Below, piece by piece: positions 40,461 through 51,760 of a DNA stretch of 64,000 bases. Positions within the stretch are counted from its first letter, which is position 1; each line of letters starts with the position of its first letter. The DNA comes from a virus, in the IMG/VR virus record IMGVR_UViG_3300010222_000171, positions 4,817-68,816 of that record. One strand, given 5' to 3'. The notes under the pieces were generated by a model. It was given only the letters and a program-made list of their open reading frames with translations. It had not been told where the DNA came from and did no database searches. A program made the translations under genes and the position numbers.

Positions 40461-41972
40461 TCACCGTTCTTCCTCCGTTATTGATTTCTTGTTCCGGCCA
40501 TTGCTCGAATCAGCGCCGGGGTCTTGGCGTGACGTAACTTCTCCACCAGCGGAATCTGCCCCACCTTCTGTATCGGTCGGACTTCCGCCATTGGGGTTCT
40601 GAATGTTATCACCAACACCCGAAAGGGTAAGCAACGTCTCCATGTGATCGCCACTATCCCAGATGTCCGGCACCTCATTGGGGTCAATTCCAGCCCGCTC
40701 TGCAAACGCATCAGGTGTAAGCAGCCCGTTGTTGAACAGGTTCAGCAGTTTGTCGATTTCCAGCCGCTTTTCTGCGGAGCTGTGTTCGCCAAACTGGAAT
40801 TCTGGAACCACACCGTCGAAGTCTTCCAGTTTTGCGCTTTCATTTAGTAGACTCCGGAGAATCTGCTGCTCGACCACAGACTTGATGCGGTTCTGAAGCC
40901 GACTGGTCCGGCGCTTGAACGAAGGCATTGCAGCCGTTGCTTCTCCCTGCCCCGAAATTTCCATGTTCATCAGCACACGAGGGACACCAAGACCAGTTAC
41001 GACCCGGTTCTCGAAGTGTTTGAACGTTTTTTCGAGCCGCATTGCTCCCGAAGTGCTTGACGTAGAAGTAGCACCAACAAGTTCAGTGTCCACGTCGTGC
41101 GGGGCCGCAAGCATCGAATCGGGCTCGATGCTCTGGACGTTATCCATCCAGGCAGTGATCTGGTCTTCAGTCCAATTACTGTCCTCATTCCCGAGTTTCC
41201 AAAGAATCGGCGGGTATGCCTTAGTTGCGATGAACCGGGCATAGTCGATCTCCATATCACGGAGCATATCAGCAGGCTCCGCAATCGGTTCGATCAGTGA
41301 TCGCCCAAAGTCTTCAGTTGGTTGTTTTGAAAAATAGAGTTCTGCGACTTCGTGCGGTTCGTATTTAATGTCATCATCCCCTTCGAGGCTACCGCCACCG
41401 CCACCCTCGGGGGTTTCGAGTTTGTAAAATTCTAAATTGCCAAACTTATCTTCCTTCCGCTGCATCTTCTTTGTCGGAAGCAGTTTCGGCTTGAAAGTTT
41501 CGTCCTCAACGACCAGTTCCATAAAAGCGTGGCCGTCGATCATTGCGTATCGGACCCAATCGTTGAACACCGGCCAAAACGTCGAGTTCTCCAGCAGACG
41601 ACTGAGCTTTGTCGCACGCGACCCATCACCCTCAGAAGAACTCTGTCCCTCTGCGGCAACCTCAGCGGCATCTCCTGCTACTCCAGATTCCATTGCCGAA
41701 TCAAAATTTTGCGGCGCGATGTTGAATCCGTCCCCAACGGTCCAATCGATGAGGGTCATGATGCCCTCTTTGACGTGGGGATCGGTGTAGGCTATATCCC
41801 GATGTTCCTGGATTTTCTCTTTGGGAGCTGAAGCGGCTCTATCGCCACCAACAGAAGTCCCAGCACCGCTGGAATCTTTACGAATAACACCCTTTGGAGA
41901 GTCGGCATAGAACTCTGCATTTTCCCCTTCGGGAATCTGCGGTTCGACAAAGTTAGATTTTTTAGTTGACAT
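40461..41972 (-). CDS. portal protein
   Basis: 503 aa directly after the large terminase; LFNNGLLTPDAF motif near the C-terminus. Confidence 0.85.
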   Translation of the reverse strand: MSTKKSNFVEPQIPEGENAEFYADSPKGVIRKDSSGAGTSVGGDRAASAPKEKIQEHRDIAYTDPHVKEGIMTLIDWTVGDGFNIAPQNFDSAMESGVAGDAAEVAAEGQSSSEGDGSRATKLSRLLENSTFWPVFNDWVRYAMIDGHAFMELVVEDETFKPKLLPTKKMQRKEDKFGNLEFYKLETPEGGGGGSLEGDDDIKYEPHEVAELYFSKQPTEDFGRSLIEPIAEPADMLRDMEIDYARFIATKAYPPILWKLGNEDSNWTEDQITAWMDNVQSIEPDSMLAAPHDVDTELVGATSTSSTSGAMRLEKTFKHFENRVVTGLGVPRVLMNMEISGQGEATAAMPSFKRRTSRLQNRIKSVVEQQILRSLLNESAKLEDFDGVVPEFQFGEHSSAEKRLEIDKLLNLFNNGLLTPDAFAERAGIDPNEVPDIWDSGDHMETLLTLSGVGDNIQNPNGGSPTDTEGGADSAGGEVTSRQDPGADSSNGRNKKSITEEER

Positions 41973-43741
41973 TATCTGGGGTGTCTTCTTTTGTATCGCT
42001 TCGATTTTCCTGCATCTGAGCTTATCCCAAACGCCGATTCTTGTACTTGATTGCTCGGCCTCGTGTCCTCACGAGATACGCTGCCACCGCTCAACATTTC
42101 TTTGAATCCAGTCGCTTCAGATCCTTCGACCGTTTCCGGCTCTTGGTTTTCATAGCCGGAAACGTTCTCTCGCTGGTGTGGTTCTATTTCGCGCTCTTCG
42201 TCGTAGTTTGGCGGATAAGCACCGAGAACAAGCGCCATTGCCAAGTCGTCTTTTCCGTCCGGAGCGTGATCCTTTCCGCTAAACCGTGGCTTCGACGTTT
42301 CGTGACGTTGTTCTTTGACAACTGCCTCAAGCTGGTCTGTAATTTTGTCGTTCTCGTCTGGAACCAACGTAATGAGATCGTTGTGGAGGGCGTAGTTGAA
42401 GTCGCCCATCATCCGCTTCACTTCGTCTTTGTCAGAGAAGTTGAACCCGAACGCTTTGCGTCCAAGGCGCTTTTCAACTTCTTTCTGGAAACCCTTACCG
42501 GGGCCGGTCTTATCGAGATAGACCCGATCAACCCCCATGTTGTTCACAACACGGTGGATGTAGCGAGCTACAGTAGAAGGATCATCGACTCTGTGCGTGT
42601 TGATCCCCACAGCGGCGAGATCCTGAATGCTTAGACAAGTATGGAAGCGGAGATAACGCCGACCATTGACGTGCTCAAACACCGCAATTGCCGTATCGTC
42701 TCGGTCAACCCCGATGTCCACGCCCATAATCATATCGCCACCGAGTCGAGCGTGCGTAGCAGGGTGCCAGTACGCCTTTTCTCCGGTGGCCTTGCCCACT
42801 GGGCCTCGGGCCGGATCAACGCGCGCTGCGCCGCGCTCAACAGCTTTTCTGATCCCATCAGAAGTAAAGAACCGATACTCGTCAGCTATCGGTCTGCACA
42901 GATACTCCTGTGCGAACCCTTGGGGGTCTTGAGCGCGCTCGACTTCGACCGAACGAACGTCCATGTCGGGCCGAACCGGCTCAACATCTTGTTCAAGAAG
43001 CGACCGTTCAATGTCGATCTCTTCTGGGTTCTTGAAACTCGGCTGTTTGATAGCAATAACACCGTCAGTTCCACGAGGACTACCTTTCTGGTTCGTAGAA
43101 ATGAACGTATCATTGCTTGCCCTCGGCGTTGACACCTGGAGCATCTGGCGGTGGCTACCCAGGTTGATGAAAGGCATATACGCCTGCATCGTGGCTTTTT
43201 GATCCTTCAGCCACGCCATTTCGTCCACAAAAACTGTCTTTGCGGAATCCATTCCACGAGCAGACTTAGGATCGCCTGAAAACGCTCTGATAGTTGCGCC
43301 GTTCGGAAAAATTAACTTGCCATTGTTGTCTTTTTCCAGCCAATCCTCGACCGGCTCCGTGACAAACTTTGAAGACTTCAGCAGCGCCCGAATATCGGAA
43401 ATTCGCTCTTCTGACTGTCCTTTGGTCCGCGAAACAATCGCAAAGTTCGCTTCTGGTGTCGTAAAAGCATCAATCGCTATTGCAACACAGAAAATAAACG
43501 AGACACCGATCCGTCGCCCCTTGTAGACGTTAATGATCGAGTCGTCGCCGTAGAAATACGCATGGAGCAGCTTAGGCTGATACGGGTAGAAAAGTTCCAG
43601 ATCTTCCATTTCCCCGGTTTCCATGTTTCGGGTCCGGAAGACATCTTGAGAAATTTTCTCAGGAGAGGCTTCCCACCGCCGAAGTAGGGCATTTTTGTCC
43701 TGATTGCTATTATCAGCAACCGCATCAGCGAGCTTATCCAT
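41972..43741 (-). CDS. terL: terminase large subunit
   Basis: KGRRIGVS (Walker A), VFVDEMAW (Walker B), GVDIG...D and DDLAMAL nuclease motifs. Confidence 0.95.
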   Translation of the reverse strand: MDKLADAVADNSNQDKNALLRRWEASPEKISQDVFRTRNMETGEMEDLELFYPYQPKLLHAYFYGDDSIINVYKGRRIGVSFIFCVAIAIDAFTTPEANFAIVSRTKGQSEERISDIRALLKSSKFVTEPVEDWLEKDNNGKLIFPNGATIRAFSGDPKSARGMDSAKTVFVDEMAWLKDQKATMQAYMPFINLGSHRQMLQVSTPRASNDTFISTNQKGSPRGTDGVIAIKQPSFKNPEEIDIERSLLEQDVEPVRPDMDVRSVEVERAQDPQGFAQEYLCRPIADEYRFFTSDGIRKAVERGAARVDPARGPVGKATGEKAYWHPATHARLGGDMIMGVDIGVDRDDTAIAVFEHVNGRRYLRFHTCLSIQDLAAVGINTHRVDDPSTVARYIHRVVNNMGVDRVYLDKTGPGKGFQKEVEKRLGRKAFGFNFSDKDEVKRMMGDFNYALHNDLITLVPDENDKITDQLEAVVKEQRHETSKPRFSGKDHAPDGKDDLAMALVLGAYPPNYDEEREIEPHQRENVSGYENQEPETVEGSEATGFKEMLSGGSVSREDTRPSNQVQESAFGISSDAGKSKRYKRRHPR

Positions 43742-45654: not shown

Positions 45655-45680
45655 TATAGTATATATTATATTGTATATGG
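45655..45680 (-). promoter_or_regulatory. late promoter for the terminase operon
   Basis: Very AT-rich TATAATATATA directly upstream of the terS ATG. Confidence 0.55.
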
Positions 45681-45690
45681 CCTATTACGG

Positions 45691-45715
45691 CGACCATTGA
45701 CGACCATTGATGACC
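45691..45715. repeat. tandem 10-mer CGACCATTGA x2 plus a partial copy
   Basis: Read directly from the sequence. Confidence 0.8.
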
Positions 45716-46807
45716 GAAACGGTTCAGTTTCTACTCTAAATACGTATTCTAAGTAGATTTAAAAACTCGATAAGTCCGGCATAGTGGTTTAGATGTTCTG
45801 GTTCAGATATACTAACCCAACAACAAACTGAATAGAATAATGGAAAATACCCATCCTGAATTGCGAGATCAAAAAGACCCCCAATTAAAAGAAAACAGTT
45901 GGGGAAACAACAACCAGAACGGGCAAAACTAAACTGGGGCAGTCTAAGTGACCTCCCCGGCACTACAATGAAAGCACACGCACTTATATACACGCCCCGA
46001 CTATGTTACGGCATCTGATATATTAACCGGCAATATTTGCCATAATGCGGAGAATATTGCCGATAGTTTCGTAATTTTCGCTCTCAAATCGGCAATTATC
46101 GGATCAAAATTTCTCGCGCGCAGATTTGACCCGATAAGTCGGGGTGGCGGCCTTAAAAGTGGGGCAAAATCGAGAAATTTTAAAATTCAGGTGGAGCTGT
46201 AAGACACCCCCCGACCTCTATTTGGCGTTCGGGGCGCGAAAATCAGGCTGAGACGGCACTATCATGCGATGTGGGTTACTAATCAAATACTGAGAGCCGA
46301 TCTGACCATGTTCCAAGTGGAATCCTGGCACCCATGGGACTCCGACACACACTGACAATCCTCCCTGACCGCCCCCTCATCGGGTTTGTCCCCCGTTCTC
46401 CCCGTTACTGGCCCTTTCAGTACCCTCAACGGCCCAGTTTGGATCTGTGGCATCCCGATTTAGTGACAAAATCCCGAGTTCTGGAGATTTTACCGTTCTG
46501 AAGGCCCCTCTCGGTAAATTAAACTCGGCTAAAACGTCGTAAAAACACCTAAAATGGGCAAAAATGTCCGGTTTCGGCCCCTTCAGGTATCGTTCATGCT
46601 TTCCGTTCTCTGAAACGGGGTGTGCCCCCAGAAATTGGCGGTTTTGGTAACTCTACTGTACGTTTTACACACACCGCCGCAGCCACACATCTGTAGGTAC
46701 AGCCGCTATGACGGGTGTGTTCCCGTACTTTAGGCGTACCTAATCCGTACCCGTTTCACTACCCGGGCGTACAACGCAGTCATGTATGTCATGATTCTTC
46801 ATGTATA

Positions 46808-46829
46808 CACCCCCGTTTCACCCCCGTTT
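46808..46829. repeat. tandem 11-mer CACCCCCGTTT x2
   Basis: Read directly; lies within a CCCGT-rich tract. Confidence 0.8.
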
Positions 46830-46955
46830 GGCCCCGTCATTCGTGCGTGCAATCTGTATACGGGTCGCGGTTGCGAACCTGCGTAAACGTCCCTGATTGT
46901 ACCCGTATAGGGCCCCGCCAGGTTTATATGTGTGAATCCAGTTGGAAAGTATGCA

Positions 46956-48495: not shown

Positions 48496-48749
48496 CGGAT
48501 CTCGAAAAGGGCAAAGCGACCATCGAGGCGCTGGACAAGGAGCCCGAAGGGAACGGCCCCCATGACAACAGGGCCGAAGAACTCGAAGACTGGTACGAGC
48601 ACTACATGGCAATTTCGGTCGAAGAGCTGGCGCTGGACTTCATGCTACGGGAGGCTTGCGAAGACGGTGAACCCCCGTTAGCTATGAGGATTGCAGCAGA
48701 GGACCGCATCCAAGAGGCAAAGGGGGCCTTGATGGGAGGAGGCGAATGA
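48486..48749 (+). CDS. hypothetical protein
   Basis: Acidic helical ORF. Confidence 0.7.
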   Translation: MAMTDLEKGKATIEALDKEPEGNGPHDNRAEELEDWYEHYMAISVEELALDFMLREACEDGEPPLAMRIAAEDRIQEAKGALMGGGE

Positions 48750-49018
48750 CGGACCTCGAACAAACCTTCGACATATCAAGGAACCCTTCGGACTACAGAC
48801 CATCGAATCACGTCTTCCAGCGAAAGAAAGAGCGACGAATGATCGACTACGACATCATTGGTGAGGCTATCGAAGATGGTGACGTGGTCGAAGTAGACCA
48901 AAACGACAACGGGAAACATGATGCCGTGATCCATTACGATTGGCTAAACTCGACGTTTAGGGTCGTAGTGGGAATTGAAGAGTGCATAGTTGAATCGGCC
49001 TACGAGATCCGAACGTAG
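48746..49018 (+). CDS. DUF4258-like (RelE/BrnT-fold) protein
   Basis: SNHVFQRKKER..IDYDIIGEAIEDG...FRVVV...IVESAY pattern. Confidence 0.6.
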   Translation: MTDLEQTFDISRNPSDYRPSNHVFQRKKERRMIDYDIIGEAIEDGDVVEVDQNDNGKHDAVIHYDWLNSTFRVVVGIEECIVESAYEIRT

Positions 49019-49022
49019 CAAA

Positions 49023-49046
49023 GACTTAACCCGTAAGGATTGAGTC
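49023..49046 (+). promoter_or_regulatory. dyad promoter motif copy
   Basis: GACTTAA-N10-TTGAGTC. Confidence 0.7.
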
Positions 49047-49047
49047 G

Positions 49048-49096
49048 TAAGCCAACTTCGGTCCCCTAACGGGGATTGGGGTTGGCTTTTTTTTTT
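49048..49096 (+). ncRNA. about 50-nt single-hairpin small RNA ending in T10
   Basis: 17-bp stem 49050-49066/49071-49087 with four G-U pairs, between the promoter motif and a T10 tract. Confidence 0.55.
49087..49096 (+). terminator. oligo-T terminator
   Basis: T10 directly after the hairpin. Confidence 0.65.
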
Positions 49097-49443
49097 GGTT
49101 CAAGTAATACCCCCACCACCCTCGGGTCTACCCTATAAGGGTGCCCCCCGTTTTGGGTGGCTACCACTGAGTAATATAACAGAGTCATACCAAGAGAAAC
49201 CGGCAGCGTTTGCTTGGAGCGAAACCAGATCACATACGCGCAAGGTGTACCGCAAGGTTTGAGCAGTCTCAAGTCTTCTATTGCCAGTTTTCGATACTGA
49301 GAGTTTAAGTCAGATATTAGAGAAAATTACGAGTATAGTCAGAGAAAAATTAAATTACCTGTGGTTATCGTAGGAGAAAAATCGCAAGACGGCAGCCGGA
49401 TTTCTATATCGACAGATATAAGTGTTAGTGGAAAAAACTCAGA

Positions 49444-50600
49444 GACACCTCGCTCCCGCACGGGGAGCTTGACCTCCTCGGCCCCACGCGCGGTACTGTG
49501 TGGGACGCCGAGGTGGTCCCCCTTGCCCGTATAAAGGCAAAGGTGGGAGGTTTCAGGGCCTTTGGCCCTTGCACGATACGCCCTTCGGGGTGTTCGGGCT
49601 TCTACCCGTAGCCTCGAAGGATAAATGGACGTGCCTTCGGACCAAGGCTGGTCCCTTTGGGACCTCGCTAATGTTAAGAAGGACTCAAGCGGGACGGTGA
49701 CAATGTACATCCCCTTCCGGGGATGGCGTGCCAGTCGCCGCCGAATATCTAAAGACCCCTGGGGCTTCTCCCCCGAAGTGAGGGGGTCGAGTTCGACCCA
49801 AATCCCTTCGTGTTAAGCAAGTTCATGTCGCGGTCTTCGGAAGAAGGCCTTGAAGTGAATCCCAATCTCGGCCCGGAGAGGTGATCGGTAATCTCGAAAG
49901 GGTATGAAGGGACGAAAGCAGAGAAGCTTCAGGGAATCGCGGGAGCCATGAGCGGTAGCTCATAGACAGCCCCATTATGGACCTCAAGGAGTCGAAGACT
50001 CGAACTGCAAAGTAAGACTCTTTGGCCCCGTAAGGGGACCGCCAGCCTTCCCTCCACCGAAAGGGGAGGCGGTATAAACTTCGGAGGGATTTATTAGAAC
50101 CCCCGAAGGGACCAGATGGCATTCCGAGTGAAGCTGACTCTTCTTTACTACGGAATCAAGCCGACGAAGACCGAACGACTCAGAGAGTCGAAGATGGCAC
50201 CGTGACAGAGCCAAAAACAGCCACGGGAAACCGGACGCTGAAGCTTTGGGAGAAGGTTCCGAGAGGAGTTCCGGCCTAAAGTGGAGTTCGGGCAATGGTC
50301 GTAGGATCAAGAATCCTCCCGATGAAGGGAGTTAGCCACTGACACCAATACGACCTAAGACGACTGGCGGAACGGAGGCTATTTCACTACGGTTCCTTCC
50401 GAAGCAAAGGGAGGAATAGCGAACGAGAAGCCAAGAGATAGCTTCAGCCTCTTACGGCGATGAAGTCACGCAACTGGTCAAAGCCGAGAGACAGCTTTGC
50501 CGGTTAGGGTTCGGAGGGATCGACCCTTCGGCCCCCGGCCCCCGATCCCCTCCGGGGAACCCTATGAGGGGGGTGACGCTGCTCTACTTAGTGAGCAGCA
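49444..50600 (+). ncRNA. candidate large (about 1.15 kb) structured noncoding RNA
   Basis: No acidic ORF. About 20 hairpins with UUCG/GNRA loops and plus-strand G-U pairs. TATA-like GATATAAG at 49415-49422. Confidence 0.6.
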
Positions 50601-50611
50601 CCTTTGGACCA

Positions 50612-51760
50612 ATGGATCTGAGCCAGACCCTTGCCGCAGAGCAGAGTACCGAAACCGAAGCCACCGCCGACAGCAGCGGCGGCAGCGACACCTCGGAATC
50701 AGAGATTCCGTTCGAGCCGAACGAAGGAACAGAGGGATACTTCCTCTTCTCCGAAGGGGGATCGCTCTGTACCGGAGTCACCGAAGACATCTACGGTTAC
50801 GACAGAGTGACGCAGCACCTCTCCTGGGGTGACAGCCTCGAAGACCTCGAAGAAGCTGGAAGTATCGAAGACTTCTGTGACGGCGCGGAGCTTGCCAAGC
50901 AGCAGAAGCTCAACCTCCTGTGGCTTCTGACGAAAGGCACCTTCGGTGCCATCCAGGGAGAGAAGAACGAAGGCTACGGCATGGGGTGGAACTCCGACCA
51001 CACCCCCCCTTCGATCTACGACAACGACGCCGTAGACCACGTTCCCTACCTCGATGTCTACAGCGACCTCCCAGCCTTCGACCACGAAACCCTCTCCGAC
51101 GAAGAGATCGAGGAACTGGAAGACCCCAACATGGAGGGTAGCGAAGGACTCGACATGGACAACTACGGTTCTTTGGACCGGGGTCCTGTCCTGCCTCGAA
51201 TCAACGGGGAACGGCTTCCCATCGTTGTCGAAGATGGCAACGAGGTTCAGAAGTTCCTGAAAGCGATAGACAGTATCGACTTCGATGAAATCACCTACTG
51301 TCCAGAGGACGGCGACCTTCAGGGGACACCGAGCCTCGGTCCTTCTGACGAAACCGATGAGGCCGTCGATGCCGAAGACAACACCTCTTCTGAAACTGAC
51401 TACGCCGACTTCAACCTCGCAGCAAACCCGGAAAAGGTAACGGAAGTTAGGACGAAGGCCCTTCGGGGTGACAACGGTTCCCCGGAGCAGCTTCACGTTT
51501 CTAACATCGATTCGCTCCGGACCATTCAGACAATGCTTCGGGCCGAACAGGAAGGCCCCCACCGTAGCTCCGCCATCGAACGGATCGAACAGCGGCGGAA
51601 CGCTCTTCAGAGCGGAGAAGAGAGCGAAGCCACCGAAGACAGCGACGACAGTGAAGAGTCGGAGTGGACCGAAGCCGACAAAGAACTCATGACGACCCTC
51701 ATCGAGTCGGGCCGAGCCGAAGATCTCAACGATGCGAAGCAGCAGATCGCTGCTCTGTAG
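50612..51760 (+). CDS. very acidic hypothetical protein
   Basis: Long ORF; likely start ATG 50612 after the last hairpin of the RNA. Confidence 0.8.
   Translation: MDLSQTLAAEQSTETEATADSSGGSDTSESEIPFEPNEGTEGYFLFSEGGSLCTGVTEDIYGYDRVTQHLSWGDSLEDLEEAGSIEDFCDGAELAKQQKLNLLWLLTKGTFGAIQGEKNEGYGMGWNSDHTPPSIYDNDAVDHVPYLDVYSDLPAFDHETLSDEEIEELEDPNMEGSEGLDMDNYGSLDRGPVLPRINGERLPIVVEDGNEVQKFLKAIDSIDFDEITYCPEDGDLQGTPSLGPSDETDEAVDAEDNTSSETDYADFNLAANPEKVTEVRTKALRGDNGSPEQLHVSNIDSLRTIQTMLRAEQEGPHRSSAIERIEQRRNALQSGEESEATEDSDDSEESEWTEADKELMTTLIESGRAEDLNDAKQQIAAL

Follow-up and report, generated by a model that had tools for sequence, protein, structure and literature searches.

A conserved, highly structured noncoding RNA of about 1.16 kb directly upstream of an acidic-protein gene in Hafunaviridae-like archaeal viruses

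What occupies more than a kilobase without an evident gene in a viral genome that is otherwise densely packed? The question is raised by positions 49442 to 50603 (plus strand) of the DNA analyzed here (the window), a stretch of 64 kb out of the 72,184-bp IMG/VR virus record IMGVR_UViG_3300010222_000171, which comes from a rock or halite metagenome. An earlier note on this DNA had seen no ORF of the acidic, halophile type in the region and had proposed that it may specify a giant structured noncoding RNA. The absence of a gene was borne out, in that no open reading frame (ORF) longer than 66 amino acids (aa) is present on the plus strand between 49019 and 50563, and the three plus frames of the RNA contain 11, 16, and 13 stops. 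Folding of the single sequence was also in agreement with the proposal. Thus, the two halves of the region gave z scores of -6.33 and -5.87 against 100 dinucleotide shuffles each, none of which folded as well, compared to a z score of -2.33 for the first 579 nucleotides (nt) of the adjacent coding gene. Considered together with the comparative evidence given below, it is settled that 49442-50603 is a conserved, noncoding, highly structured RNA element.

The noncoding character was also observed in the relatives of this element. Each plus frame contains 8 to 20 stops in all but 2 of the 22 homologues, the exceptions being locus L009, with 6 stops in one frame, and locus L041, which carries an insertion and has 21 to 31. 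The longest ORFs (46 to 128 aa) fall at nonhomologous places in different lineages, and the indels among homologues are not multiples of three. For their part, the small-ORF annotations over the homologous gap disagree between the GenBank records of the Mincapviruses: four or five small hypothetical coding sequences (CDSs) have been placed across the RNA in HRTV-2 (gp105-108), HCTV-6 (gp102-106), and HRTV-11 (gp105-109) (L001, L005, and L006, respectively), and none or one in HSTV-2 and HRTV-7. These small CDSs, which are not conserved as ORFs, are probably spurious. Their annotation is corrected here together with the start of the gene that follows the RNA in the window, which alignment with relatives places at 50612; the in-frame ATG at 50564, where the mechanically called ORF starts, falls inside the 3' domain of the RNA.

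The RNA was found in 22 related virus loci, including those of the cultured Mincapviruses HSTV-2, HRTV-7, HRTV-2, HCTV-6, and HRTV-11. Collinear similarity of 69 to 82% was observed by blastn between the window and the Mincapvirus gap, and blastn also matched six IMG/VR contigs (L009, L011, L015, L017, L018, and L031), among which L018 is identical to GenBank LMAX01000004.1 and L031 gave no blastn match against phages. Scanning with a 17-mer pattern returned mostly chance matches, which were removed by blastn. A scan of genome contigs gave one chance match, in an Acidobacteriota metagenome-assembled genome, and a scan of metagenomes yielded only a duplicate of L018 plus two chance matches. At the sequence level, the RNA is conserved more strongly than the proteins that flank it. 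While the gap DNA is 70 to 82% identical, the flanking proteins are 21 to 35% identical or undetectable, and the downstream proteins align at just 23 to 34% identity. A pairwise BLASTP comparison of the window with the HSTV-2 proteins gave a single 37-residue match, and none of the neighboring proteins of HSTV-2 was detectable in the window by tblastn.

Two covariance models, R1 (3' domain) and R2 (core), were built from structure-blind alignments; the window scored 113.8 bits on R1 and 133.4 bits on R2, being itself in the training alignments. Both models matched L017, which lies outside the training set, with E values of 1e-9 and 1e-18, respectively. An independent route to relatives was provided by the downstream protein, since a profile search with its family returned 30 proteins, from which 12 contigs (L037 to L048) were picked by exact protein identity. 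In all 12, a gap of about 1.1 to 2 kb without conserved genes precedes the gene, and R1 and R2 matched directly upstream of the ATG in every one of them (E values of 1e-14 to 1e-40), so that each contig fetched through the acidic protein alone also carries the RNA. The arrangement that defines the class was found as well: the R2 core is followed by the R1 3' domain, in that order, directly upstream of the acidic-protein gene, and a promoter composed of a TFIIB recognition element (BRE) and a TATA box precedes the ATG by approximately 1.0 to 1.25 kb, no terminator being present between the two.

All covariation was counted on plain MAFFT alignments made blind to structure, and the measure is therefore conservative. 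Alifold z scores against column shuffles ranged from -2.4 to -10.9 in 11 of 12 scanning intervals along the RNA. Compensatory, double-sided changes were present in 20 of 37 and 17 of 33 pairs predicted by RNAalifold in two segments; five segments taken jointly had 211 predicted pairs, 101 of them compensatory. Between 77 and 91% of the cells were canonical in these five segments, compared to 35 to 59% when the 3' partner was slid by 1 to 3 columns, and four of the five segments exceeded all 300 shuffles in the number of compensatory pairs. When the enlarged 21-sequence alignment was used, the 201 consensus pairs included 126 with compensatory changes; 89.6% of the cells were canonical, and the extra pair types numbered 310. 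The slid controls rendered 49 to 74 compensatory pairs, 37 to 48% canonical cells, and 157 to 215 extra pair types, and the maxima reached by shuffling were 90, 77.1%, and 266, respectively. The earlier note had made its proposal depend on such changes in homologues, and they were abundant.

These data bear directly on the possibility that the region is nonfunctional, that is, a DNA-level element or a GC-rich spacer with incidental hairpins, or decayed or hidden coding or intron sequence. Alifold z scores were negative on both strands, as they would be for any palindrome-rich DNA, and IMG/VR labels the record a provirus, in which decay is possible. However, pairing is kept by compensatory double substitutions across lineages that are merely 50 to 63% identical, the excess of G-U pairs is strand specific, and the promoter is conserved in the right orientation. 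Cultured isolates that are lytic carry the same element as well, all frames of all homologues contain stops, and no intron or ribozyme of Rfam matched at E values up to 10. Incidental or decayed sequence is thus very improbable as an explanation, and a nonfunctional or DNA-only element is essentially excluded.

The plus strand had been favored in the earlier note, and the consensus structure bore this out. It contains 316 G-U pairs versus 148 A-C mismatches, and several individual helices show 20 to 26 G-U against 0 to 5 A-C. The alifold energy was -290.9 on the plus strand versus -275.7 on the minus strand. The G-U excess, the orientation of the promoter, and the lower energy together identify the plus strand as the RNA strand.

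As regards transcription, the genes of the upstream operon end at 49018 and are followed by an intrinsic-type terminator (Table 1), which sets the RNA apart as a transcription unit of its own, and by an AT-rich spacer that leads to the promoter motif. The TATA-like sequence GATATAAG, which had been noticed about 25 nt upstream of the RNA, forms part of the motif CGAYASNTWTAWRT. This motif occurs once in the window, where 0.01 copies would be expected by chance, and it stands at the matching relative position in relatives; in its strict form, a single copy was found in every one of the first 11 loci. The promoter element aligns in all 21 loci having sequence there, with the consensus aTCGMCAGRTWTAWRT. 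Approximately 27 nt downstream of this element lies a conserved start segment, GAGACACCUCGCUC in the window and GAUACAGGUCGCUCGCAGGCAAG in most relatives. In the window, the promoter stands some 30 nt before the RNA, and transcription is predicted to start at about 49442-49448. This geometry agrees with that of the experimentally mapped promoters of the related virus HF2, in which the TATA box begins at position -26 and the BRE spans -33 to -37 (PMC8707807). The distance from the predicted start to the ATG was 1008 to 1246 nt in 21 sequences and 1761 nt in L041, with its insertion.

At the other end, the RNA finishes in a covarying hairpin, followed by a short linker and then by the ATG, which is reached approximately 10 nt after the RNA end in the window and about 10 to 17 nt after it across relatives. 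The window and the aligned relatives have neither a T-tract terminator nor a conserved internal promoter at this junction. With no terminator and only some 10 nt to the ATG, the RNA forms, at least at first, the 5' leader of an mRNA. The description of the element as a giant noncoding RNA in a halovirus thus stands insofar as the element is structured and noncoding and the genome is Hafunaviridae-like, with the qualification that it is continuous with the downstream gene.

Table 1. Positions in the window of the structured RNA, its domains, and the neighboring elements of its transcription unit
Feature	Position	Strand	Description
Intrinsic-type terminator of upstream operon	49049-49098	+	18-pair hairpin followed by T10
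Archaeal promoter CGACAGATATAAGT	49410-49423	+	BRE-like CGACA, then TATA box; kept in relatives
Structured RNA, ~1160 nt	49442-50603	+	Multiple domains, 201 consensus base pairs
5' domain	49442-49630	+	Conserved 5' end, hairpins 49471-49518 and 49554-70, otherwise variable hairpins; alignment z score of -4.0
Domain 2	49633-49813	+	Helices 49690-93/49797-800, 49695-701/49734-40, 49708-13/49720-25, and 49754-60/49782-88
Domain 3	49827-50179	+	Closed by 13-bp long-range helix
Domain 4	50201-50470	+	Closed by strongly covarying helix 50201-06/50465-70 and by 50210-12/50456-58
3' hairpin cluster	50499-50597	+	50499-539, 50541-57, and 50580-97; directly before start codon; duplicated in L041
Linker, unstructured	50604-50611	+	A/C-rich in most relatives (ACACAAC...); without T-tract terminator
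Acidic protein, 382 aa	50612-51760	+	Conserved, always directly downstream of RNA

The domains into which the RNA is organized are given in Table 1. Domain 2 has a helix, 49695-701/49734-40, in which 23 G-U and no A-C combinations were counted, a single strand that hardly varies, GCCGCCGAAUAUCUAAA (49737-53), and a sequence resembling a T-loop, GAGUUCGACCC (about 49789-99); in segment A, corresponding to this domain, 23 of the 55 pairs were compensatory. The helix that closes domain 3 is formed by GUCGCGGUCUUCG (49827-39) and CGAAGACCG-AA-CGAC (50165-79). It is 100% canonical and shows U-A to C-G double changes in L009, HRTV-11, L044, and L017, and it encloses covarying hairpins at 49948-65, 49986-50030, 50039-76, and 50124-53. 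The interior of domain 4 consists of a conserved core at 50231-91 (GGACGCUGAAGC, CCGAGAGG, and GGAGUU) and a helix, 50374-79/50447-52. Loops of the GNRA and UUCG types are numerous in the RNA.

Several of the hairpins named in the earlier note reappeared in the consensus. Covariation supported 49554-58/49566-70, 49650-54/49660-64 (compensatory in four of its five pairs), and 49708-13/49720-25 (in all six), as well as the 3' helices 50499-503/50535-39, 50507-15/50526-34, 50541-44/50554-57, and 50580-84/50593-97. The two stacked helices drawn at 49476-49513 correspond to a hairpin at 49471-49518 in the minimum-energy fold of the window, where a hairpin of the form CACACAC...GUGUGUG is found in relatives. 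Other proposed pairings were not supported as conserved features. Instead of the long-range pairing of ACCUCC (49472-77) with GGAGGU (49546-51), the consensus pairs 49518-22 with 49544-48, and the local hairpins at 49989-50001 and 50026-50037 are replaced by pairing of 49986-97 with 50020-30.

The two helices that close domain 4 are separated by an internal loop of 3 + 6 nt, in which AGA (50207-50209) stands opposite GAUGAA (50459-50464). The loop is next to a GCC/GGC stem, and the covarying helix that flanks it occurs in at least eight sequence versions. It fits the consensus of a kink turn (K-turn) or box C/D-like motif and is a candidate K-turn: a canonical GGC/GCC stem is accompanied by a 3-nt bulge (GAU) and by G-A and A-G opposite AGA, a sequence pattern that resembles the motifs bound by archaeal L7Ae and that fits in most window-type sequences. 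GAUGA was present on the bulged strand in 18 of 21 sequences, and in 14 of 21 the strand facing it had AGA. Unlike box C/D RNAs, this is a local motif inside an RNA of 1.16 kb without guide-RNA architecture, and the Mincapvirus copies show AAA. On established K-turn biology, the host L7Ae protein would be a candidate partner of the loop. Weak, subthreshold Rfam matches to archaeal C/D sRNAs were observed nearby, at 50159-50211.

Can the RNA be assigned to a known family? When the whole window and six related loci were searched with cmscan against Rfam 15, no family reached its gathering score. The models of GOLLD and ROOL, very large structured RNAs of bacteriophages, gave no match, even when E values of up to 10 were admitted in 49000-51000, a search in which nothing credible and no intron or ribozyme model appeared. 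There was likewise no Rfam match to RNase P RNA, signal recognition particle (SRP) RNA, OLE, HEARO/omega RNAs, or rRNA fragments. The cmscan result accords with the judgment of the earlier note, which could not recognize RNase P, SRP, or a group I or II intron by eye; an intron of either group is not indicated, as no model matched and as the upstream side consists of a terminator and a promoter rather than an exon. This RNA class was not mentioned in the halovirus literature searched. It is absent from Rfam 15 and previously undescribed, a class of multi-domain RNAs of 1.0 to 1.25 kb, in line with the suspicion that it might be new.

The resemblance to GOLLD and ROOL that the earlier note had drawn holds in kind. 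Like them, the RNA is very large, multi-domain, and virus borne, with heavy covariation, GNRA/UUCG-type loops, and no known function, and by analogy it would presumably be expressed during infection. Unlike them, it matches no Rfam model, belongs to viruses of archaea, and is longer (1.0 to 1.25 kb). GOLLD and ROOL often adjoin tRNA genes in phages and prophages of bacteria, whereas the RNA of the window has no tRNA neighbor, and no tRNA gene was found by ARAGORN in the 64 kb. It differs from them further in having its own promoter, in forming the 5' part of the mRNA of a conserved protein, and in its fixed place near a genome end. The comparison is therefore one of analogy, not of family membership.

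The fixed place of the RNA was apparent from the maps of related genomes. The large terminase (TerL) of the window (41972-43741, minus strand) is 51% identical to the TerL proteins of Hafunaviridae, Mincapvirus and Haloferacalesvirus alike, and by this comparison the genome is that of a Hafunaviridae-like archaeal tailed virus. In records of that family, TerL lies 3.0 to 4.6 kb from the left end, a synteny according to which the physical genome ends should fall near 46 to 46.9 kb of the window. At approximately 45655-46931, a divergent region of 1.3 kb with lower GC content (0.46 to 0.53) separates the minus-strand morphogenesis block on the TerL side from a plus-strand block; by the same synteny, the physical termini or a terminal repeat probably lie here, and the record is then probably a permuted or joined assembly. 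The homologous stretch of the Mincapvirus isolates (HSTV-2, HRTV-7, HRTV-2, HCTV-6/15, and HRTV-11) lies 2.2 to 3.4 kb from the right end and points inward. From the TerL synteny and these maps, the structured RNA would lie approximately 3 kb inside the other arm and be transcribed inward. The genome end concerned would correspond to the HF2 arm that produces early and middle transcripts. Published Northern and primer-extension work on HF2 reports that the genome is transcribed inward from its termini, that the equivalent arm yields early and middle transcripts, and that the known repeat promoters do not explain the major transcripts from that end (PMC8707807).

A noncoding region of 1.4 kb was also found at this end in the Haloferacalesviruses HF1, HF2, HRTV-5, HRTV-8, HSTV-4, and VOLN27B, where it extends from the terminal repeat to the first CDS. 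In HF2 it runs from the 306-bp terminal repeat to the first CDS at about nt 500 to 1970 (L049, AF222060.2); other copies are those of HRTV-5 (L036:6280-7714, minus strand) and loci L050, L051, and L052. No gene is annotated there in the curated records of HF1, HF2, Serpecor1, and Hardycor2, nor does the Haloferacalesvirus literature searched describe a structured RNA at this place. The stretch, of 1408 to 1431 nt, is kept at 73 to 100% in 41 phage records; it opens with a BRE/TATA motif of the same type (CGACGGGTTTATAT) and ends ..ACACCCAACGAACTATG at the first CDS. Five diverse members gave alifold z scores of -4.9 to -9.5 in every interval examined, and their 438 consensus pairs were 92.4% canonical, with 94 compensatory pairs and 171 G-U versus 43 A-C combinations.

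The Haloferacalesvirus RNA thus shares with the window class the virus family, the genome end, the type of promoter, and an ending at the first CDS. It differs in being approximately 250 nt longer, in following directly on the terminal repeat, and in preceding a protein that shows no similarity by profile comparison. Homology to the window class was not found in the HRTV-5 gap by R1 and R2 with filters off, by blastn, or by motif searches, and an hhalign comparison of the acidic protein family with HRTV-5 gp121 was negative. The stretch probably represents another class of giant RNA, without detectable homology to the window class. A giant structured RNA is thus present at this genome end in all the Hafunaviridae examined, and it takes at least two forms.

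The position near a genome end raises the possibility that the RNA serves replication or packaging, by priming or activating a nearby origin or by taking part in recognition of the terminus. ColE1 RNA II and T7 early transcripts prime or activate DNA replication in this way. The RNA lies approximately 3 kb or less from the terminus in Mincapviruses, and its HF2 analogue starts right after the 306-bp repeat and a site annotated "putative nick site in genome replication"; these viruses, moreover, have T7-like direct terminal repeats (PMC8707807). Primers, however, need local features of an RNA-DNA hybrid, not 200 intramolecular pairs spread over five domains, and no origin-like repeats or AT-rich unwinding element were seen inside the RNA. 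Furthermore, in the window class the RNA is set off from the terminus by a terminator and one to four genes. A role of this kind is consequently improbable.

The gene downstream was examined for indications of what the RNA does. No Pfam family was found for the acidic protein, and the PHROGs that matched were all of unknown function. A search for relatives with the single window protein found none, and its tblastn comparison against phages gave no match. An AlphaFold2 model made from 32 sequences, an input that left out two Mincapvirus rows taken from annotated-region loci, had a mean predicted local distance difference test (pLDDT) score of 72.9. The model had no fold match in PDB, and the viral fold library BFVD returned a sole match, a 349-residue entry, which is taken to be the Mincapvirus homologue of the acidic protein.

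Additional information was provided by L041. Approximately 490 nt are inserted in this locus between the RNA and the conserved gene, with two small acidic ORFs, one of them from an ATG at 1983. The last ~110 nt of the RNA, comprising the hairpin cluster, are present twice, before the insertion and before the conserved gene, in agreement with R1 matches at 1855-2005 and 2387-2492. The duplication hints at a hairpin module that would be needed in cis at the start codon or would act as a processing signal.

Such observations could be accommodated by a purely cis-acting giant 5' leader, controlling the translation, stability, or timing of the acidic-protein gene alone, for instance through IRES-like (internal ribosome entry site) ribosome loading on a leadered haloarchaeal mRNA devoid of a Shine-Dalgarno sequence, or as a sensor. 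The RNA and the gene are always adjacent, as in the 12 of 12 protein-found contigs, with no terminator and an unstructured linker of about 10 to 17 nt before the ATG, and in L041 the 3' cluster was duplicated directly before the conserved gene, which suggests a module needed in cis. In being folded, co-transcribed, and placed directly before a start codon, with a 3' module at the ATG, the RNA also resembles structured leaders, such as the T-box and ribosomal-protein leaders, and the IRES elements of picornaviruses and hepatitis C virus. Its size, however, is three to ten times theirs, and it exceeds the protein in conservation. The window RNA showed no signature of ligand or tRNA binding, and no known leader family matches it. 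Its 1.0 to 1.25 kb, with approximately 200 conserved pairs, are far beyond known prokaryotic leaders. L041, for its part, duplicated only the last ~100 nt of the RNA, so that the context of the start codon leaves the other 1 kb unexplained. In addition, the genus of HF1 and HF2 keeps a different RNA of 1.4 kb before a protein without detectable similarity, which indicates that the position of the RNA is conserved and not the gene. A leader acting solely in cis is the main alternative to the reading favored below, and we consider it rather unlikely.

We favor, with moderate confidence, an early-expressed folded RNA or ribonucleoprotein (RNP), co-transcribed with the acidic-protein mRNA and probably cleaved from it. 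According to this proposal, the host RNA polymerase would transcribe the RNA shortly after the viral genome enters the cell, as the 5' portion of the acidic-protein transcript. The RNA would then fold compactly into a tertiary architecture including the candidate K-turn (which could bind host L7Ae), the T-loop-like motif, and the GNRA/UUCG loops. Cleavage, probably in the A/C-rich linker, would separate it from the mRNA, and the 3' hairpin cluster would shield its end. It might work as a folded RNA or RNP, either as a scaffold or by sequestering a factor of the host or the virus like a sponge, and the co-conserved downstream protein could take part. The specifically trans-acting or processed part of this proposal is tentative and, taken by itself, somewhat doubtful.

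Several points weigh against the favored reading. The missing terminator and internal promoter would fit a plain cis-acting leader equally well. A look for RNA-seq runs containing this sequence listed none, and the existence of the transcript, where it starts and ends, how abundant it is, and whether it is processed are predictions from sequence. The acidic protein yields no functional clue for the RNA. The K-turn assignment is by consensus, from which the Mincapviruses depart with AAA instead of AGA on the nonbulged strand. Finally, the alignment is poor in the 5' domain and around 49850-49940, and the structure is uncertain there as a consequence.

A more far-reaching form of the proposal would see in these elements the first giant (>1 kb) ornate RNAs from archaeal viruses, in at least two unrelated classes, each released from the mRNA as an autonomous RNA machine or RNP. 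By analogy, this could be a ROOL/GOLLD-like multimeric assembly, a decoy for host L7Ae or another factor during takeover, or a ribozyme. We regard this form as speculative and unlikely at present; if it were true, an autonomous released RNA would represent an entirely new category of function for a viral RNA in Archaea.

Apart from rRNA, structured RNAs of very large size are seldom found, and GOLLD, ROOL, OLE, and raiA each opened new RNA structural biology. The RNA of the window is longer than any of these four, has strong comparative support, and is present in every family member found; no giant structured RNA from archaeal viruses was described in Rfam 15 or in the literature searched. HSTV-2, HRTV-7, and HF1/HF2 are in culture, with known hosts and promoter biology, so that the function of a giant viral RNA is directly testable in Archaea.

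Some genes recur in the neighborhood of the RNA. The last gene before the upstream terminator (48746-49018) encodes a 90-aa protein with a borderline match to DUF4258 (24.6 bits versus a cutoff of 25), and a DUF4258-like gene is also found upstream of the RNA gap in the relative L039, which points to a recurrent upstream neighbor. On the other side, an SprT-like (PF10263) gene recurs approximately 1.8 to 2.7 kb downstream of the conserved gene in L040, L042, and L043.

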